Below are positions 4,001-26,400 of a stretch of DNA of 26,400 bases, in pieces. The stretch comes from a virus. Numbering within the stretch: the stretch's first letter is position 1; each line of letters begins with the position of its first letter. The stretch lies in the UHGV virus genome UHGV-0369576; one strand, given 5' to 3'. The notes under the pieces are model-generated. The model was not told where the DNA came from. It searched no databases and saw nothing but the letters and a program-made list of their open reading frames with translations. Both the position numbers and the translations under genes were made by a program.

Positions 4001-4263
4001 GAAATAAGATGACCGGTAGCAAAAGCTCCGGCAAATGCCCCCGCCATATTCAGTGCCGAAGATTTAGCTGTATTTATCTGATCCGTCACTTCTGCCAGTG
4101 CACGCCGCATTTCACGGGATGCAGCAGCGGACTGCCGGCCTCCGTTCTGCATGGTACGGTAGTAATCCTGCCCCATACGCGAAGCCCGGGAGATCTCTGA
4201 CTGGAATGACCGGGAATTTGCCGAGATTTTAATAATCAGTTCACGTAATGTCGCCACACTCAT
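1030..4263 (-). CDS. Tail tape measure protein (lambda H-like)
   Basis: 1077-aa ORF, Ala/Gln-rich coiled-coil-like middle, Gly-rich C-terminus, positioned after G/GT and before M; ATG at 4263 preceded by GGAGA. Confidence 0.9.
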   Translation of the reverse strand: MSVATLRELIIKISANSRSFQSEISRASRMGQDYYRTMQNGGRQSAAASREMRRALAEVTDQINTAKSSALNMAGAFAGAFATGHLISLADEWNSVNARLKQASQSSDDFQVSQRELMAISQRTGTAFSDNASLFARSAASMREYGYSSEEVLKVTEAISTGLKLSGASTAEASSVITQFSQALAQGVLRGEEFNSVNENGDRVIRALAAGMGVARKDLKAMADNGKLTADKVVPALISQLGALRDEYAAMPDTVSSSATKVENAFMAWVGGANEASGVTKTLTGVLNGVADNMDTVAAAAGALVAVGVARYFGNMASSAGSATAGLITAARNEVALAEAQLRGTQIATARARAAVYRAQQAVVAARGTERQAAAEAKLTAAQASLTRNIAARTAAQTTLNTVTSVGSRLLSGALGLVGGVPGLVMLGATAWYTMYQNQEKARESARQYAATIDEIRQKTSAMSLPEASDNEEKTRQALDEQNRLIDEQKSKIKSLQEKIAGYQYVLANPGWTTDNGFMINHMTSVKTVTEGLAEATNQLAVEQSRLTQMQGKAQSIQDVLAGLEERRVALIRQQAAEQNKAYQSLLIMNGQHTEFNRLLGLGNELLQQRQGLVNVPLRLPQATLDDKQQTALNNSERELALSRLKGEARERARLGYAADDLGFVGEAYQTARQNYINNSLDAWRNNQANKPKAHKKTEAEKTEDIYKRLIKQQKEQIALAGQNTELAKMKYQVSQGELSTLSEAQKKTLLQNAALIDQKKIREQLAAYESSLADSNASARASDEAQLLGYGEGSRMRERLQEMWSIRQAFEQKNNELLRQYQAGEIEEALWKQEKELNKKYLEERLSDQQDYYAKADALRNNWNAGLQEGLTNWADSATDYASQAADAVVSTMDGLVSNISDALAGNVVDWRNWGSSVLREVSKILMNAAIVNGLKSLSGAGGWLGTVGGWISGAVANAKGGVYTSANLSAYSNTIVDTPTYFAFAKGAGLMGEAGPEAIMPLTRAADGSLGVRAIGNVNGGGGFVYSPVYHISIQNQGSNGEIDARSARGLVDLIDSRVVSIMQSSRRDGGLYSA

Positions 4264-13919: not shown

Positions 13920-14405
13920 ATGCCAGAACTCGTTGATCCAACAGACTCATTAATTAGTTTTCAATACGCCTTTTCTAATGGTCTGATTAAGCCTTCACCA
14001 TGCATAGTTCACCCAAATATGAAGGTGCTTTTGGATGATGCAGAGGGTACGCCACGGTTTACTTATGCATTCTTTGAAGGAGAAAATGTTAAAGGTGTTG
14101 CTATATATGTCCCTGCAGAGTTTGTTGAAGGTAAACCATGCTTTGGCGTTGGCTATGCAGTAGCCGATGAATATAAAGCGCAAGGCATCGGTACTCAACT
14201 TCTCATCGCCAGCATTGAAGAAATGCAATACGGATTTAGAAATTCCTTCAATGAATTCTATGTAGAGGCTATTGTCGGGGTTGGTAATCAAGCCTCCAAC
14301 AAATTAGCTGCAAAAGTTTTATCTGATACTCCTGAGCCAGGGACAGATTCTTACTCAGGAAAACCTATCAATCAGTACATGAAACTTTTCAAAACCACAA
14401 AATAA
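13920..14405 (+). CDS. GNAT-fold N-acetyltransferase-like moron
   Basis: Motif-A-like VGYAVADEYKAQGIGTQLL (Q-x-x-G-x-G) and motif-B-like FYVEAIVGVGNQASNKLAAKV; opposite strand to all neighbours; AT-rich; own AGGA SD and downstream hairpin. Confidence 0.55.
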   Translation: MPELVDPTDSLISFQYAFSNGLIKPSPCIVHPNMKVLLDDAEGTPRFTYAFFEGENVKGVAIYVPAEFVEGKPCFGVGYAVADEYKAQGIGTQLLIASIEEMQYGFRNSFNEFYVEAIVGVGNQASNKLAAKVLSDTPEPGTDSYSGKPINQYMKLFKTTK

Positions 14406-16463: not shown

Positions 16464-16538
<75 letters not shown>

Positions 16539-16541
16539 ATA

Positions 16542-16617
<76 letters not shown>

Positions 16618-16619
16618 AC

Positions 16620-16696
16620 TGGACCGCCACCGGGGACTCGAACCTCGCACACTCAACTTAAAGGGTTGACGCTCTTTCCTGATGAGCTAGTGGCGG
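16620..16696 (-). tRNA. tRNA-like gene with non-canonical features (anticodon region CCUUUAA, possibly UUU/Lys)
   Basis: Perfect 7-bp acceptor stem starting C1-G72, D and T arms present, encoded CCA, but C at position 33 and an A-C mismatch in the T stem. Confidence 0.45.
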
Positions 16697-16697
16697 C

Positions 16698-16773
16698 TGG
16701 TGGCCCTTGCTGGATTTGAACCAGCGACCTGGCGATTATGAGTCGCTCGCTCTCACCACTGAGCTAAAGGGCC
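16698..16773 (-). tRNA. tRNA with CAU anticodon (Ile2/Met type, ileX/ileZ-like)
   Basis: Anticodon loop CUCAUAA; overall similarity to E. coli ileX from memory; encoded CCA. Confidence 0.7.
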
Positions 16774-18025: not shown

Positions 18026-19147
18026 TTACCCGAGCACGCCGGTTGCAAAGGCGTGATCAAGAAAACGAAAAATTAAATCAACCTGGGAACCATGCTTTTC
18101 TTCGAACGCCAGCGGATCCGCATGAAGTTCGTTGTGATGTTCCCGGCACAACGGTAGCGTGAAAATATCGTGGGCCTTTGTTCCCATCCCTCCCTGACCG
18201 TGACCAATCAGGTGATGGGGATCGTCGGCTGGCTGACCACAACACGCACACGGCTGTGTCTTCACCCAGCGCGTATATTTCTCATTTAGCCAACGGCGAC
18301 GTTTAGGTCGCCTCATGAAAGATTCCGGAGACTCCGGATCAACGGTGATGCATACCACCGTCTTTTCCTGTGGTGGGTTCTGTTGCTGGTGGGCATGAGG
18401 CAACGGCGCAAGATTTTTTGTGCGCTGCTTCAGTATGCTGGTGGCGGTCTGCTCTCCCGGTACGATGTCGCTTTCGCGGTACAAGGAGCGGATTTTTTCC
18501 GCACGTACCCCCAGAGAACGACGTAATACTGCCTCCGGAAGCGCGTCCGCCACCTGATTGCAGACCGCCCACCAAGATAATTCAGCCAGCGACAATTCCC
18601 GCTCCTGCGTGCCATTCATTGCATGGCGTATGACGTCAATCATCCATGCTGACAGGTTTTGATGAGCAAGTTGCCCGAGTGATTCGGATGTCTGGTCACG
18701 CAACTGGTTGTCGCAGTGCCAGCACAACACCATCGCGCTGGTACCGTAACGATGTATGACGATTTCACTGTGATGATAGTCACCATGAGGCCACTGGCAG
18801 GATTTGACATGACGCAACAGCCAGTCAGACAGCGCCCCAGCGCCGCCAGCAGCACGAATCACCCGCTCATCGCTGAAAAATGGCAGTAATGATTTATCCT
18901 CCGCCAGCGGCTGGCGAACGGCAGGGACGACTCCGGACGGCAGACCGCGCATGCTTTTCGGTTCAGGCTCCACCAGCACTCGAGGGTTATGAAATACTTG
19001 CATGGATTCACGGCCCGGCCTAAGGACCACCAGCCCGAGTTCCGGTACCAGAACAGGTCGAAGTAATATCCGCACGTTACCTCCAGATCCGTTGCTGGTA
19101 TGTGCGGGATGGGCGCGGTGGGCGTTCGGAATAAGGGAGCCTGACAT
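18026..19147 (-). CDS. DUF968-family protein with C-terminal Cys/His-rich (HNH-like) region
   Basis: C-terminal CACCGQPADDPHHLIGHGQGGMGTKAHDIFTLPLCREHHNELH; start uncertain (19147 or 19003). Confidence 0.6.
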   Translation of the reverse strand: MSGSLIPNAHRAHPAHTSNGSGGNVRILLRPVLVPELGLVVLRPGRESMQVFHNPRVLVEPEPKSMRGLPSGVVPAVRQPLAEDKSLLPFFSDERVIRAAGGAGALSDWLLRHVKSCQWPHGDYHHSEIVIHRYGTSAMVLCWHCDNQLRDQTSESLGQLAHQNLSAWMIDVIRHAMNGTQERELSLAELSWWAVCNQVADALPEAVLRRSLGVRAEKIRSLYRESDIVPGEQTATSILKQRTKNLAPLPHAHQQQNPPQEKTVVCITVDPESPESFMRRPKRRRWLNEKYTRWVKTQPCACCGQPADDPHHLIGHGQGGMGTKAHDIFTLPLCREHHNELHADPLAFEEKHGSQVDLIFRFLDHAFATGVLG

Positions 19148-19355
19148 AGATTATCCAGTGACGATAATCGAGGCTGAGGGCTTTCTTAATCTCGTATCCG
19201 CGTCTGCGATAGTTATGAATTAGCCATTCGGCCTGTTCTTCAGTACATGGGTCATGCTGGAACCAGTCAGATTTGAAAGTGCGGGAACGCCGCCCGTGCC
19301 TGCTGGCAAAGACGGCAGAATCATCAGAATTGTGTAATTTGGTATCGTGCGCCAT
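19077..19355 (-). CDS. Hypothetical basic protein (92 aa)
   Basis: ATG at 19355 downstream of a terminator; overlaps the DUF968 ORF if that starts at 19147. Confidence 0.4.
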   Translation of the reverse strand: MAHDTKLHNSDDSAVFASRHGRRSRTFKSDWFQHDPCTEEQAEWLIHNYRRRGYEIKKALSLDYRHWIIYVRLPYSERPPRPSRTYQQRIWR

Positions 19356-20187: not shown

Positions 20188-20343
20188 TTACTCCTCAGGT
20201 TCGTAAGCTGTGAAGACAGCGACCTCCGTCTGGCCGGTTCGGATTCGTACCTCGCAGAGGTCTTTCCTCGTTACCAGTGCCGTCACAATGACGGTTAAAC
20301 AGATGACGATCAGGGCGATTAACATCGCCTTTTGCTGCTTCAT
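20188..20343 (-). CDS. hokD: Hok-family type I toxin (HokD/RelF-like)
   Basis: 51 aa, MKQQKAMLIALIVICLTVIVTALVTRKDLCEVRIRTGQTEVAVFTAYEPEE; single TM helix and conserved Hok C-terminal region. Confidence 0.8.
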   Translation of the reverse strand: MKQQKAMLIALIVICLTVIVTALVTRKDLCEVRIRTGQTEVAVFTAYEPEE

Positions 20344-20579
20344 AGCCTGCTTCTCCTTGCCTTTCGGCACGTAAGAGGCTAACCTAGATTTGCCGTTCAT
20401 AGATTGAGCCTCAGATTAATGTTAAGCGTCTTGCAGGACGCGTAATGTTAACTGGGGCTTTTCTCTATCTGCCTTTGGTGTTCATGCCTGAGACAGATAG
20501 CCTCAAGCACCCGCAGCCATTCTACTTAACTCCCGTTACCTCGCCAATATAAAATCAATCAGAAAGGTGATCCATAAAA

Positions 20580-21266
20580 TCACTCCTTCTCTTCTTTTCC
20601 GTAGTGGAGTTGGCCAATTTTGATAAGAGGGCGTCCCTGAGATTTGCGGTGTAGATTGGTATCGCGCAGAGAATACACACAGCCACAATATTCCTGCTGA
20701 TAGAATTTTTCGCGCTTGCTGATTTCAATCATACGGGACGAGCCGCCCTGCTTGCGCCAGTTATAATCCCAGTACACCATACCCGGATAATGCGCAACAG
20801 CTCGCCGCCCACACTCGTTAACCTGCTGCATATTTTTCCAGCGTGAAATGCCCAGTGAACTGCTGATCACACTGAAACCATTTTCAGCAGCGTACAACGC
20901 TGTCCGCTCAAAACGCATGTCAAAACACATGGTACAACGGATCCCCCTCTCAGGCTCCCATTCCATTCCTTTGGCACGTTCAAACCAGTTGTCGGTGTCG
21001 TAATCAGCATCGATAAACGGCACGCCGTGTTGTTCAGCAAAGCGAATATTTTCATCCTTACGAATTAAATACTCTTTCTGAGGATGAATGTTCGGGTTGT
21101 AGAAAAAGATGGTGTAGTCGATTCCCGAGGCCTGAAGCGCCTCCATCACTTCACCGGAACATGGAGCACAGCAAGAGTGCAGTAGTAGTTTGTTTGCCCC
21201 GTTTGGGAGCTCCAATTTAGGCCGTTTGAAATCAGCAATAGTCATAAATATTTTTATTGGGGTCAT
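20580..21266 (-). CDS. Cys-rich DUF208/QueH-like protein (putative epoxyqueuosine-reductase family)
   Basis: N-terminal [14 protein letters not shown] motif plus further Cys clusters (CTMCFD, EYCGCVY); family assignment from memory of the motif only. Confidence 0.45.
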
Positions 21267-24390: not shown

Positions 24391-24816
24391 TTAGTGCATC
24401 ACCACAGCATTCCCTGCCGGGCCGCCGCGATTCATCTGGTCATACAAAACAACCGCTGACGCAACAAAATCATCGACATCCTTCACCAGCCGATCCCTCC
24501 GTTCGACGATCTCACGGTAATATTCAGAACTGTGGCTGCGCATACGGGCCACCAGCAAAGGCGGCATCGCCTTTTCGATCGCCGGTAACAGAGCCTGCAT
24601 TTTTTCAACAGCATCAGGGGTGTCTTTCTCTACCCAGCGGAAAATTTTCTGGGTATTGCGAGCCAGGGCTTCCGGATGGCTGTCGTCATACAGTTCTGGG
24701 AACGTCATACCCAACTCAAAATAAGCCTGGGTTATTCCAGCTGCTGGAACTTTTTCGCCATCAGGACGCGCCCAGGCATTCATCGCCATGCGGATGTGTT
24801 CATGCTTGATTTTCAT
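24391..24816 (-). CDS. YdaT-like protein in the cII position
   Basis: 141-aa ORF downstream of the Cro-like gene with AGGAG SD; family call from memory of Rac prophage gene order. Confidence 0.5.
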   Translation of the reverse strand: MKIKHEHIRMAMNAWARPDGEKVPAAGITQAYFELGMTFPELYDDSHPEALARNTQKIFRWVEKDTPDAVEKMQALLPAIEKAMPPLLVARMRSHSSEYYREIVERRDRLVKDVDDFVASAVVLYDQMNRGGPAGNAVVMH

Positions 24817-25081
24817 GAATCAAGCTCCTAGAAAGTGGTTGTGTTAACGTTTTGGTATCTTCCAGCTCGGGCCAAATATTCATCCAATCAAAAGGCCTTA
24901 GTTGCTGACGTGTAACTTCACCATTACTGGCTCGCTCAATAAGGACACATAACGATGCCCCTAACACTTGACCTTTACTCAATGCCTTTCTTAGATAACC
25001 GATGCTGGTACCACACTCGCATGCAAACATACGCTGTTCATCTGACGAAAGAGAATTGAGAAATATTCTTAATTCTTCCAT
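24800..25081 (-). CDS. Cro/YdaS-like HTH regulator
   Basis: 93 aa; HTH-like CGTSIGYLRKALSKGQ; divergent from the repressor; AAGGAG SD. Confidence 0.6.
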   Translation of the reverse strand: MEELRIFLNSLSSDEQRMFACECGTSIGYLRKALSKGQVLGASLCVLIERASNGEVTRQQLRPFDWMNIWPELEDTKTLTQPLSRSLIHENQA

Positions 25082-25104
25082 AGCTACTCCTTAGTAAACA
25101 CAGC

Positions 25105-25150
25105 AAAGAATACCCACAGGTAAACAAAAGTCAATACCCACAGGTTGTTT
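25105..25150. promoter_or_regulatory. Right operator region with PR-like promoter for the Cro-like gene
   Basis: Two copies of TACCCACAGGT(A/T) at about 25111 and 25135; minus-strand TTGACT, 16 nt, TATTCT with an operator inside the spacer. Confidence 0.55.
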
Positions 25151-25181
25151 ACCTTGCGGTAATCGCATCTATTATTTACCT

Positions 25182-25601
25182 ATGGACAAATATGAATTTA
25201 GACGACAGCAACTCATCAAAATTCGTGATGAGAAATGCGATGGTAAAGCGGTTAACGTGGCCAGAAAGATCGGGCGCGAGCCTTCTTATGTATCAAGAAT
25301 GTTGTACCCAGAGGGGAAAAAGGGAAAAAAACGGATCGCTGATGATATGGTGGAGATTATCGAAGAGTCCTTTGGGTTACCCCGGGGATGGATGGATGGT
25401 ATCGTTTCATCATCAACGAACACAGCCTCCAGTTATGAAACAAGGGTTCTAACGCCACGACAACGTATTTTTTTAGATCTCTTAGACGAACTGCCAGAAA
25501 GTGAAGCGGATAAATTATTAAAAACTCTTGAAGAGAAAAAACAGTATTACAATATGATCTACGAAGAAATCCGTAAAAAGAAAGCACAAAACGCATCATA
25601 G
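25182..25601 (+). CDS. Prophage repressor (HTH, no LexA-type cleavage domain)
   Basis: 139 aa; HTH-like AVNVARKIGREPSYVSRML; divergent from the Cro-like gene; flanked on both sides by the same palindromic operators. Confidence 0.7.
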   Translation: MDKYEFRRQQLIKIRDEKCDGKAVNVARKIGREPSYVSRMLYPEGKKGKKRIADDMVEIIEESFGLPRGWMDGIVSSSTNTASSYETRVLTPRQRIFLDLLDELPESEADKLLKTLEEKKQYYNMIYEEIRKKKAQNAS

Positions 25602-25639
25602 CTCACCAAACAACTAGTCACCAGTTAAGACACCGCAAA

Positions 25640-25685
25640 AATTTACCCATGGGTATTTACTTTTTAAATACCTATGGGTATCCTT
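25640..25685. promoter_or_regulatory. Left operator region with pL-like promoter
   Basis: Perfect palindrome TACCCATGGGTA at about 25644 and TACCTATGGGTA at about 25669; TTTACT, 17 nt, TATCCT on the plus strand. Confidence 0.5.
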
Positions 25686-25866
25686 CTTTTCATACCAACC
25701 CACCCCGCCCCACAGAATGCAGGGCAATACTTCGAGTTACCAGGCAGTGGTCAGGGGTTAAGTAGCCAGCCCGAGGCGTAAGAACATGACGGCAGGGTTC
25801 AACTTTAATAACTATGCAGCAGGTTTTTGTTCCGCTACCCCGGCGTTAAGGGGAAATGAGGTCAAC

Positions 25867-26022
25867 ATGGATACTATCGATCTTGGCAACAACGAATCTC
25901 TGGTGTACGGCGTGTTTCCCAACCAGGACGGCACGTTCACCGCGATGACGTATACCAAAAGCAAAACGTTTAAAACCGAAAATGGTGCCCGTCGCTGGCT
26001 GGAAAGAAACTCAGGTGAGTGA
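25867..26022 (+). CDS. Small early-left protein (YdaF-like, 51 aa)
   Basis: ATG with GAGG SD; MDTIDLGNNESLVYGVFPNQDGTF...; family call from memory. Confidence 0.5.
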   Translation: MDTIDLGNNESLVYGVFPNQDGTFTAMTYTKSKTFKTENGARRWLERNSGE

Positions 26023-26023
26023 T

Positions 26024-26152
26024 ATGGATTTCGACACAATCATGGAAAAGGCTTACGAAGAATACTTCGAAGACCTTGCCGAAGGCGAAGAAGCTCTCAG
26101 CTTCAGTGAGTTTAAACAGGCGCTTTCCAGCTCGGCAAAATCTAACGGCTGA
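26024..26152 (+). CDS. Small acidic early-left protein (YdaG-like, 42 aa), not in the ORF track
   Basis: ATG 1 nt after the preceding stop; MDFDTIMEKAYEEYFEDLAEGEEALSFSEFKQALSSSAKSNG. Confidence 0.45.
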   Translation: MDFDTIMEKAYEEYFEDLAEGEEALSFSEFKQALSSSAKSNG

Positions 26153-26181
26153 TAAGCGAAGTAGCACCGCGAGGAATCAGT

Positions 26182-26400
26182 ATGCAGAAACGAGAACCCG
26201 TCATAATCGCGCCAGACTATACCGATGATGAACTTTATGAGTGGATGCGCCAGAAAATTAATGCAGCGCAGGATCTGAAATGGGCTAATGAAGCCAGGGC
26301 TAAGCAGGCTGAAAATCTGTCCGCTCTGGAGCAGGATATCACCAATCTGGAAAAAGCAGCGGCATTAAGCATTGCCAGAATGATTACATACCCGCGTTAA
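26182..26400 (+). CDS. Hypothetical protein (72 aa)
   Basis: ATG with GAGGAA SD; stop at the window end. Confidence 0.5.
   Translation: MQKREPVIIAPDYTDDELYEWMRQKINAAQDLKWANEARAKQAENLSALEQDITNLEKAAALSIARMITYPR

Follow-up and report, generated by a model that had tools for sequence, protein, structure and literature searches.

The window analysed here is the whole 26,400-nucleotide stretch of UHGV virus genome UHGV-0369576, a lambdoid Escherichia coli prophage, and the region around its 139-amino-acid repressor gene is very probably the immunity switch of a prophage of the Qin/Rac type, working by the mechanism set out below. The switch is of an ordinary kind and belongs to the known lambdoid class with short non-cleavable repressors; its repressor has 139 amino acids, an N-terminal helix-turn-helix (HTH) and no cleavage domain, as is typical of that class, and is labelled "hypothetical protein" in the annotated E. 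coli matches examined. The repressor gene (plus strand) and a Cro-like gene (minus strand) are divergent, with a 100-bp spacer between them. Operators of one palindromic type lie in this spacer, over the promoters PR and PRM, and again downstream of the repressor gene, over a promoter pL (Table 1). A lambda-like immunity architecture had been proposed in a sequence-only reading of this DNA, and is supported by the comparison over 44 loci and phage mEp043 described below. The operator motif was scanned for in the 26.4-kb window and in a 49-kb locus that holds the entire prophage.

The operator consensus is the 12-bp TACC-N4-GGTA, in which the outer 4-bp half-sites are conserved and the centre is variable. 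Exact copies occur only four times in the window (at 25111, 25150, 25644, and 25669), all in the two intergenic stretches beside the repressor gene, and a fifth copy has one mismatch. The 49-kb locus has the same four exact copies and none besides, against 0.29 expected from shuffled sequences, and none of 100 shuffles reaches four. Twelve-bp palindromic operators on either side of the repressor gene, two to three on the right and two on the left, had been noticed in the sequence-only reading, and the motif scan confirms them as O1, O2, and O3 (O2 with its mismatch), and OL1 and OL2. The spelling given there, TACCCA-NN-GGGTA, did not hold; it has 13 nt as written, not 12, and is not enriched. 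Scanning for TACCCANNGGGTA with two mismatches gave 8 matches versus 3.8 expected, and this form was replaced by TACC-N4-GGTA. The same reading had overlooked two features that proved real, the hairpin of the left sites and the chimeric make-up of the repressor. Relative to the repressor ATG, the sites stand at -71, -47, and -32, and at +462 and +487. Their centres are 24 bp (O1–O2), 15 bp (O2–O3), and 25 bp (OL1–OL2) apart, and the centre of O2 lies 41.5 bp ahead of the ATG. A candidate fourth operator over the ATG (25178–25189) is not kept in a Salmonella relative (L050), and is probably due to chance.

The arrangement of the sites is conserved far beyond E. coli. One genome per species was scanned, which yielded 42 loci with a related DNA-binding domain in Enterobacterales, Aeromonas, Neisseria, Burkholderiales, Nitrosomonas, and Xanthomonadales; footprinting of promoters and leaders spans 44 loci. 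Of the 42 loci, 39 have sites at offsets of about -73, -48, and -33 to the repressor ATG, as does phage mEp043. The position of O1 is kept at -71 to -73 in these 39 and in mEp043, O3 is conserved at -32/-33, and O2, at -47/-48, has degenerate last bases in most loci. Across the 42 loci, the density of the motif reaches 11 per kb in the last 210 bp ahead of the repressor ATG, versus 0.52 per kb elsewhere. Presence of the sites follows the protein; loci with a diverged predicted recognition helix (L028, L044, and L048) have none, and each of the 39 loci that keep the helix SY(V/I)xRM has between one and three. In the alignment, the upstream sequence reads tTACCnnnnGGTAa-N7-GTCAA-TACCnnnnGGtt-aTTTACCnnnnGGTAa-N6-8-TAnnAT-N6-7-ATGGAYAAA, with conservation of the PR -35 TTGAC abutting O2, of the PR -10, the first bases of which are the last TA of O1, and of the PRM -35 TTTACC. 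Downstream of the repressor gene, the pair of sites is 25–26 bp apart in most loci, and about 30 loci show the order OL1, TTGAC/TTTAC, N7-8, OL2, TAnnnT. A homologous Cro is encoded beside the operators in 35 loci (36–73% identity; M-E/D-E-L..YLNSLS..CGTSIGYLRKA..IWPEL). In mEp043, a genuine lambdoid phage, the right sites are found at 2929, 2954, and 2969, the cI ATG follows the -10 by 6 nt, and the left sites, at 4096 and 4121, lie past a canonical terminator and just before nutL/N. In the leaders of the heteroimmune phage Tritos and of other Qin-like prophages, DNA homology to the window starts at about 25696, some 12 nt past the proposed pL -10, which places the end of the immunity cassette at the pL start. 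A literature search with the operator strings returned unrelated papers only, a paper on the mEp043 immunity region was not recognised from titles or abstracts, and no description of the operator consensus or of the repressor mosaic was found in the literature searchable here.

A promoter scan returns exactly two promoters in this region, PR and PRM, the latter exactly as predicted in the sequence-only reading (TTTACC, 16 nt, TATTAT). The predicted start of PR is near 25100 on the minus strand, and that of pL is near 25691. The modules of PR (25106–25145) and pL (25645–25685) are inverted copies of each other (inverted repeats I1/I2). The proposal that the right copies overlap PR, one of them in the spacer, agrees with the position of O1 over spacer and -10 and of O2 next to the -35; that of left copies over pL is borne out by a layout conserved across loci.

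The PRM -10 ends 6 nt before the repressor ATG (25182). Transcription from PRM would therefore start at or beside the ATG and give a leaderless repressor mRNA, as had been suggested by analogy with lambda cI. The spacing of -10 and ATG across loci agrees with this: the gap is 6 nt in 13 loci and 7 nt in 17 (together 30/44), and 38/44 loci lack a Shine–Dalgarno (SD)-like sequence ahead of the repressor ATG. Because of this conserved gap and missing SD, a leaderless repressor mRNA looks like a trait of the whole family. The cro leader in the window has 19 nt and carries an AAGGAG SD (complement of 25087–25092), 5 nt ahead of the ATG. In several loci of Burkholderiales and Xanthomonadales (L027, L031, L034, L035, L037, L040, L043, and L045–L047), the cro ATG is found 6–8 nt past the PR -10, and both switch genes may thus be leaderless there.

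From the sites, their enrichment and conservation, and the promoter geometry, we infer repressor binding, activation, order of occupancy, and induction route as follows. A dimeric repressor would read the TACC half-sites with its HTH head. Occupancy of O1 and O2 would shut off PR, and with it cro (YdaS-like), cII (YdaT-like), and the replication genes. In lambda, OR2 sits at -42 relative to the PRM start; O2 is placed in the same way and probably activates PRM, and O3, overlapping the PRM -35, should yield negative autoregulation. OL1 and OL2, about 460 bp downstream, would cover pL, repeating the layout seen at PR, and repression at these sites would keep the ydfABC-dicF-dicB-exo-xis-int operon silent. 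Since pL is placed to drive ydfABC-dicF-dicB, it would be the counterpart of dicBp of Qin. Cro, co-inherited with the operators, presumably binds the same sites. Derepression would be brought about by a repressor-binding protein (antirepressor), possibly acting in trans, or by Cro-driven bistable switching.

Several observations weigh against this mechanism. The centres of O2 and O3, 15 bp apart, are on roughly opposite faces of the helix, so that alternation between O2 and O3 in the style of lambda is not guaranteed. The pL promoter scores only 8/12 versus consensus, which is below the scan threshold, and the case for it is comparative. Neither the window nor the full prophage has an antirepressor candidate, a LexA box, or a homologue of DinI, GftA, or Rem.

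Judged from its domains, the repressor is a mosaic of head and tail, not a truncated S24 repressor, because its tail is a conserved module found on many heads and its head occurs with other tails. The DNA-binding head (amino acids 1–75; 25182–25406) is 65–82% identical to the heads of S24/LexA-family prophage repressors of 221–242 amino acids, including mEp043 cI, and its recognition helix (..PSYVSRMLY) matches the SY(V/I)xRM group. The helical tail (amino acids 88–139; 25443–25598) is of the DicA/Gifsy type, and in the alignment stands in place of the S24 domain of the homologues. Pfam gave no match in the 139-amino-acid repressor, and hence no S24/LexA domain. The absence of a LexA-like cleavage domain, claimed in the sequence-only reading, agrees with both results, and with the S24 domain replaced by this tail, RecA-stimulated autocleavage is excluded. 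An AlphaFold model (mean pLDDT 82) has an HTH head with helices at residues 3–18, 23–30, 34–41, and 54–63, a disordered linker (amino acids 77–87), and a helical tail made of helix 92–103 and the long helix 106–138.

The tail is similar to the C-terminus of DicA, both by NF007257 (E 1.9e-5, short of the curated cut-off) and by BLASTP (33% identity, E 2e-7; DicA sequence checked in the Qin locus L006), and the heads of the two proteins are non-homologous. With the tail of phage Tritos CI, the head of which is unrelated, it shares 72% identity, and it is weakly similar (E 1e-3) to Gifsy-2 GtgR, with a shared motif L..LF..LPE.E; GtgR itself matches DicA. In a search of 1.84 billion representative proteins, the 50-amino-acid tail module was found as the C-terminus of 48 proteins, mostly of 120–185 amino acids, and the 33 that were aligned bear diverse HTH heads. 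The head is joined to other short tails in Burkholderiales. A PDB sequence search with the repressor gave nothing significant, and Foldseek against the PDB found weak matches only, the best being the Rep–Ant complex of Salmonella phage SPC32H (5d50, E 1e-3, TM 0.46), which is a lead and not a classification.

With autocleavage excluded, derepression must proceed via an antirepressor or via Cro-driven switching. The "antirepressor or another route" of the sequence-only reading fits the literature on this class, but finds no confirmation in the prophage, which has no LexA box and no homologue of DinI, GftA, or Rem. The chances are about even that induction depends on an antirepressor supplied in trans by a co-resident prophage, or on a Cro-dependent, bistable flip of the switch itself, with repressor lost in a stress- or temperature-sensitive way, as reported for DicA and PaaR2. 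Cleavage plays no part with the Gifsy repressors; LexA-controlled antirepressors remove them from DNA, and non-cognate repressors can be targets as well (PMC3121763). The dicBp promoter is turned on spontaneously or with urea or heat, which requires DicC but not Rem (PMC10448788), and CP-933P is bistable (PMC8630535). The sharing of the tail module by many heads and the lack of a candidate in cis point in the same direction. So does the distribution of the repressor: 822 of 5426 complete E. coli genomes have a match covering 80% or more of the 1-kb switch stretch (cro, repressor gene, and downstream sites), and the repressor gene is present in none of the sequenced phages of the phage collection. 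This absence from free phages fits poor inducibility, but may equally be explained by sampling. Against trans or bistable induction it counts that the argument is purely one of analogy, and that Tritos and phages of the vB_EcoS series, whose repressor tails are near-identical to this one, were recovered as virions.

Induction in cis after the Gifsy model, with a LexA-controlled dinI–antirepressor operon that inactivates the repressor during the SOS response, appears unlikely from the gene content, since no LexA box, homologue, or annotated antirepressor was found. The tail does belong to the DicA/GtgR type, members of which are inactivated by antirepressors (PMC3121763; PMC10448788), and the SPC32H Rep–Ant complex is the best, though weak, structural match. 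An exact LexA box (CTGT-N8-ACAG) is absent from the 49-kb prophage locus; the best LexA-like site in the prophage scores 13/20 and lies within queH, whereas the same scan gives 17/20 for the Gifsy-2 dinI box used as positive control. With Rem, DinI, and the presumed Gifsy-2 GftA (the open reading frame, ORF, after dinI) as queries, tblastn had no match below E 0.2 in the window or in three prophage loci. A PHROG scan that took in the small ORFs and the hypothetical ones of the nin region found no antirepressor family, and none is named in the PGAP annotation.

A small conserved ORF of 92 amino acids (phrog_1212, function unknown; 19077–19352, minus strand) stands immediately upstream of the DUF968/ydfU gene. 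Tritos and other Qin-like prophages have it too, and its place is the stretch from hokD to ydfU, where Qin has rem. The idea that it is a positional analogue of rem was dropped, as it does not resemble Rem and there is space in Qin for the two genes together. Tritos has an ImmA/IrrE-type metallopeptidase gene in its nin region (L049 36945–38090); the window prophage has none. The Tritos gene suggests inactivation by a protease as a possible alternative for repressors with this tail.

The two left operators together form a hairpin with a 16-bp stem and a 5-nt loop, located 43 nt past the repressor stop codon. Its folding energy is -23.4 kcal/mol (z -4.6), and it is the strongest of such hairpins among the loci compared. 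An Rfam scan of 24700–26400 gave only a spurious sub-threshold miRNA match on the hairpin. After the stem, the window has an interrupted U-tract and L050, L052, and L053 have none; the stem is kept in relatives. In a 92%-identical relative (L052, L053; about +463 to +499 from the repressor ATG), OL1 is TACCCACAGGTA and OL2 is TACCTGTGGGTA. These are exact reverse complements, and a double compensatory change relative to the window keeps the hairpin while the T-run is lost.

The left pair (25644–25680) might on these grounds be mainly an intrinsic terminator of the repressor transcript or, in a softer form, serve both roles. The strong stem followed by TCCTTCTTTT shortly after the stop codon, the compensatory change in the relative, and the lack of another terminator to separate the toxic dicB operon from the repressor gene are in favour of it, but a mainly terminating role is highly improbable. 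About 30 loci hold the pair at 25–26 bp with the -35 and -10 in register; in those loci, the pair is often 0.1–1.8 kb from the repressor stop and the hairpins are weak (-5 to -17 kcal/mol). The mEp043 pair comes after a separate canonical terminator and before N, the T-run is lost in the nearest relatives (L052, L053, and L050), and two copies of one palindromic site pair with each other regardless of function. The pair is best taken as operators whose palindromy yields a hairpin; in this lineage, the hairpin might also serve to terminate the PRM transcript.

That the repressor is what decay has left of an S24-type cI and the region a dead switch, as homologous heads mostly joined to S24 domains and the many cryptic Qin-like prophages might indicate, is scarcely credible, given that the tail is a conserved module shared with DicA and Tritos CI with no truncation, that the operators and promoters are all intact and the structural, lysis, replication, and int/xis genes complete, and that the 1-kb region is kept in 822 complete genomes, with 100% identity in all 15 matches listed and 543 members in the repressor protein cluster.

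The minus strand of the window runs from tail to head genes, lysis, Q, the nin region, and replication genes, and finishes with the cII-like YdaT gene and the Cro-like YdaS-type gene. The cII-like gene also matches phrog_163, "CII-like transcriptional activator" (E 2e-47). On the plus strand, the repressor gene is followed by ydfA, ydfB, and ydfC. In annotated genomes, the pL operon is ydfA-ydfB-ydfC-(dicF)-dicB-ydfD-exo-xis-int, which is the dicB operon of Qin, and the prophage is annotated with complete sets of structural, lysis, replication, and int/xis genes. In strain O103 RM8385, it occupies the Qin site adjoining rspB. An alternative start of ydfA (DUF1391), at an upstream ATG, gives a protein of 78 amino acids (25786–26022, plus strand), as annotated in Tritos; phrog_751 matches its residues 10–77, and PGAP calls instead the form of 51 amino acids (25867–26022). 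Depending on the start codon, the pL leader would have 95 or 176 nt.

Four tandem tRNA genes (16464–16773, minus strand) separate the Q antiterminator gene from the lysis genes; they are Gly-TCC, Thr-TGT, Lys-TTT, and one with anticodon CAT (Met according to ARAGORN, Ile according to PGAP). Cargo genes of the nin region are a homologue of the epoxyqueuosine reductase QueH (20580–21266, minus strand) and hokD (20188–20400, minus strand). A GNAT acetyltransferase gene (13920–14405) is found on the opposite, plus strand between the lysis and terminase genes.

Table 1. Features of the predicted immunity switch and adjoining genes; positions are those of the window.
Feature	Position	Strand	Description	Evidence
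cII-like gene (YdaT family)	24391..24816	-	second gene of PR operon	Pfam PF06254, E 2.6e-9
Cro-like gene	24800..25081	-	YdaS-type HTH	phrog_35, E 5e-23
PR	25107..25134	-	-35 TTGACT 25134-25129, 16-nt spacer, -10 TATTCT 25112-25107	promoter scan, 9/12
O1 (OR1 analogue)	25111..25122		TACCCACAGGTA, exact, over PR spacer and -10	motif scan, conservation
O2 (OR2 analogue)	25135..25146		TACCCACAGGTT, 1 mismatch, abutting PR -35	motif scan
PRM	25148..25175	+	-35 TTTACC 25148-25153, 16-nt spacer, -10 TATTAT 25170-25175	promoter scan
O3 (OR3 analogue)	25150..25161		TACCTTGCGGTA, exact, overlapping PRM -35	motif scan, conservation
Repressor gene	25182..25601	+	139 amino acids	ORF; head, linker, tail
OL1	25644..25655		TACCCATGGGTA, exact, immediately upstream of pL -35	motif scan, conservation
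OL1 + OL2 hairpin	25644..25680	+	16-bp hairpin, then TCCTTCTTTT	terminator scan, RNA fold
pL	25656..25684	+	-35 TTTACT 25656-25661, 17-nt spacer, -10 TATCCT 25679-25684	comparative evidence
OL2	25669..25680		TACCTATGGGTA, exact, over pL spacer and -10	motif scan, conservation
ydfA (DUF1391)	25867..26022	+	opens pL operon	Pfam PF07151; PGAP annotation of identical DNA

An operator consensus, a promoter map, and a repressor domain map are now available for an immunity type present in 822/5426 complete E. coli genomes. Since the switch would control the dicF/dicB operon, it would decide the timing of cell-division and phage-exclusion factors. The loci compared amount to a natural experiment, in which one set of head, operators, and Cro is combined with a cleavable or a non-cleavable C-terminus. 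The mosaic allows tests of what the mode of induction alone does to a prophage, and of the recognition of the shared tail by antirepressors. The general picture of lambdoid regulation is unchanged. A wider reading is put forward tentatively, as a joint one that is possible rather than probable. The core of cro, operators, and head would form one old and fixed cassette that reaches from Enterobacterales to Neisseria, Burkholderiales, and Xanthomonas, with interchangeable sensor tails (S24 self-cleavage, DicA/Gifsy, and others), and with the E. coli version in about 15% of complete genomes. The tail swap would give a lysogen SOS-proof immunity to mEp043-type phages, with induction tied to prophage crosstalk or non-SOS cues, and the left operators would double as an RNA hairpin insulating the toxic dicB operon from read-through of the repressor gene.

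Lambda shares with this switch the divergent repressor and cro genes, three right operators with the first two 24 bp apart over PR and the second about 42 bp before the PRM start, a left set over pL, and, as predicted here, a leaderless repressor mRNA. Here the operators are of 12 bp (TACC-N4-GGTA) in contrast to the 17-bp sites of lambda, the left sites are two instead of three, the O2–O3 spacing is 15 bp, OL is only about 0.5 kb from OR, the repressor has no S24 domain, and pL would drive ydfABC-dicF-dicB, not N. The closest relatives of the head, operators, and Cro are mEp043 cI and the S24-type repressors of Enterobacterales, Burkholderiales, and Xanthomonadales, with which the head, recognition helix, operators and their offsets, PR/PRM/pL geometry, and homologous Cro are shared; their repressors, of 221–242 amino acids, differ by having an S24 autocleavage domain, and mEp043 has N and nutL after pL.

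In the heteroimmune relative CP-933P/Sp12 of E. coli O157:H7, the short repressor PaaR2 is likewise encoded opposite YdaS and YdaT. PaaR2, YdaS, and YdaT are analogues of CI, Cro, and CII, the paaR2 mRNA is leaderless by 5' RACE, and PR, PRM, and pL are regulated by both proteins in a bistable switch (PMC8630535). PaaR2 differs in its repressor family, in its 18-bp repeat operators of the GTTTAGTAA type, and in co-transcription of the repressor gene with a toxin–antitoxin pair. Repressors of Gifsy-1, -2, and -3 (GfoR, GtgR, and GfhR) are uncleaved proteins of about 136 amino acids in a lambdoid context, with the tail motif in GtgR; their heads and operators are different, and the window prophage is without their dinI–antirepressor operon and LexA box.

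In Qin of E. coli K-12, DicA represses dicBp and dicC, repression is relieved by the antirepressor Rem, and switching is DicC-dependent and bistable (PMC10448788). The DicA head is a classical XRE HTH unrelated to the head described here, the Qin operators are TTAG-N6-CTAA-like (read from L006), Cro is of the YdaS-like type here versus DicC in Qin, and the window prophage has no Rem antirepressor gene. The flanks of dicA in L006 (6870–6935 and 7375–7430) bear these TTAG-N6-CTAA-like palindromes in the same arrangement, and since the dicA ATG immediately follows one of them, dicA may be leaderless too. Qin and the window prophage have in common the genomic slot, the downstream operon with ydfA, ydfB, ydfC, dicF, and dicB, a short repressor that is not cleavable and has a C-terminal tail of similar sequence, operators on both sides of the repressor gene, and, in some strains, the integration site next to rspB.

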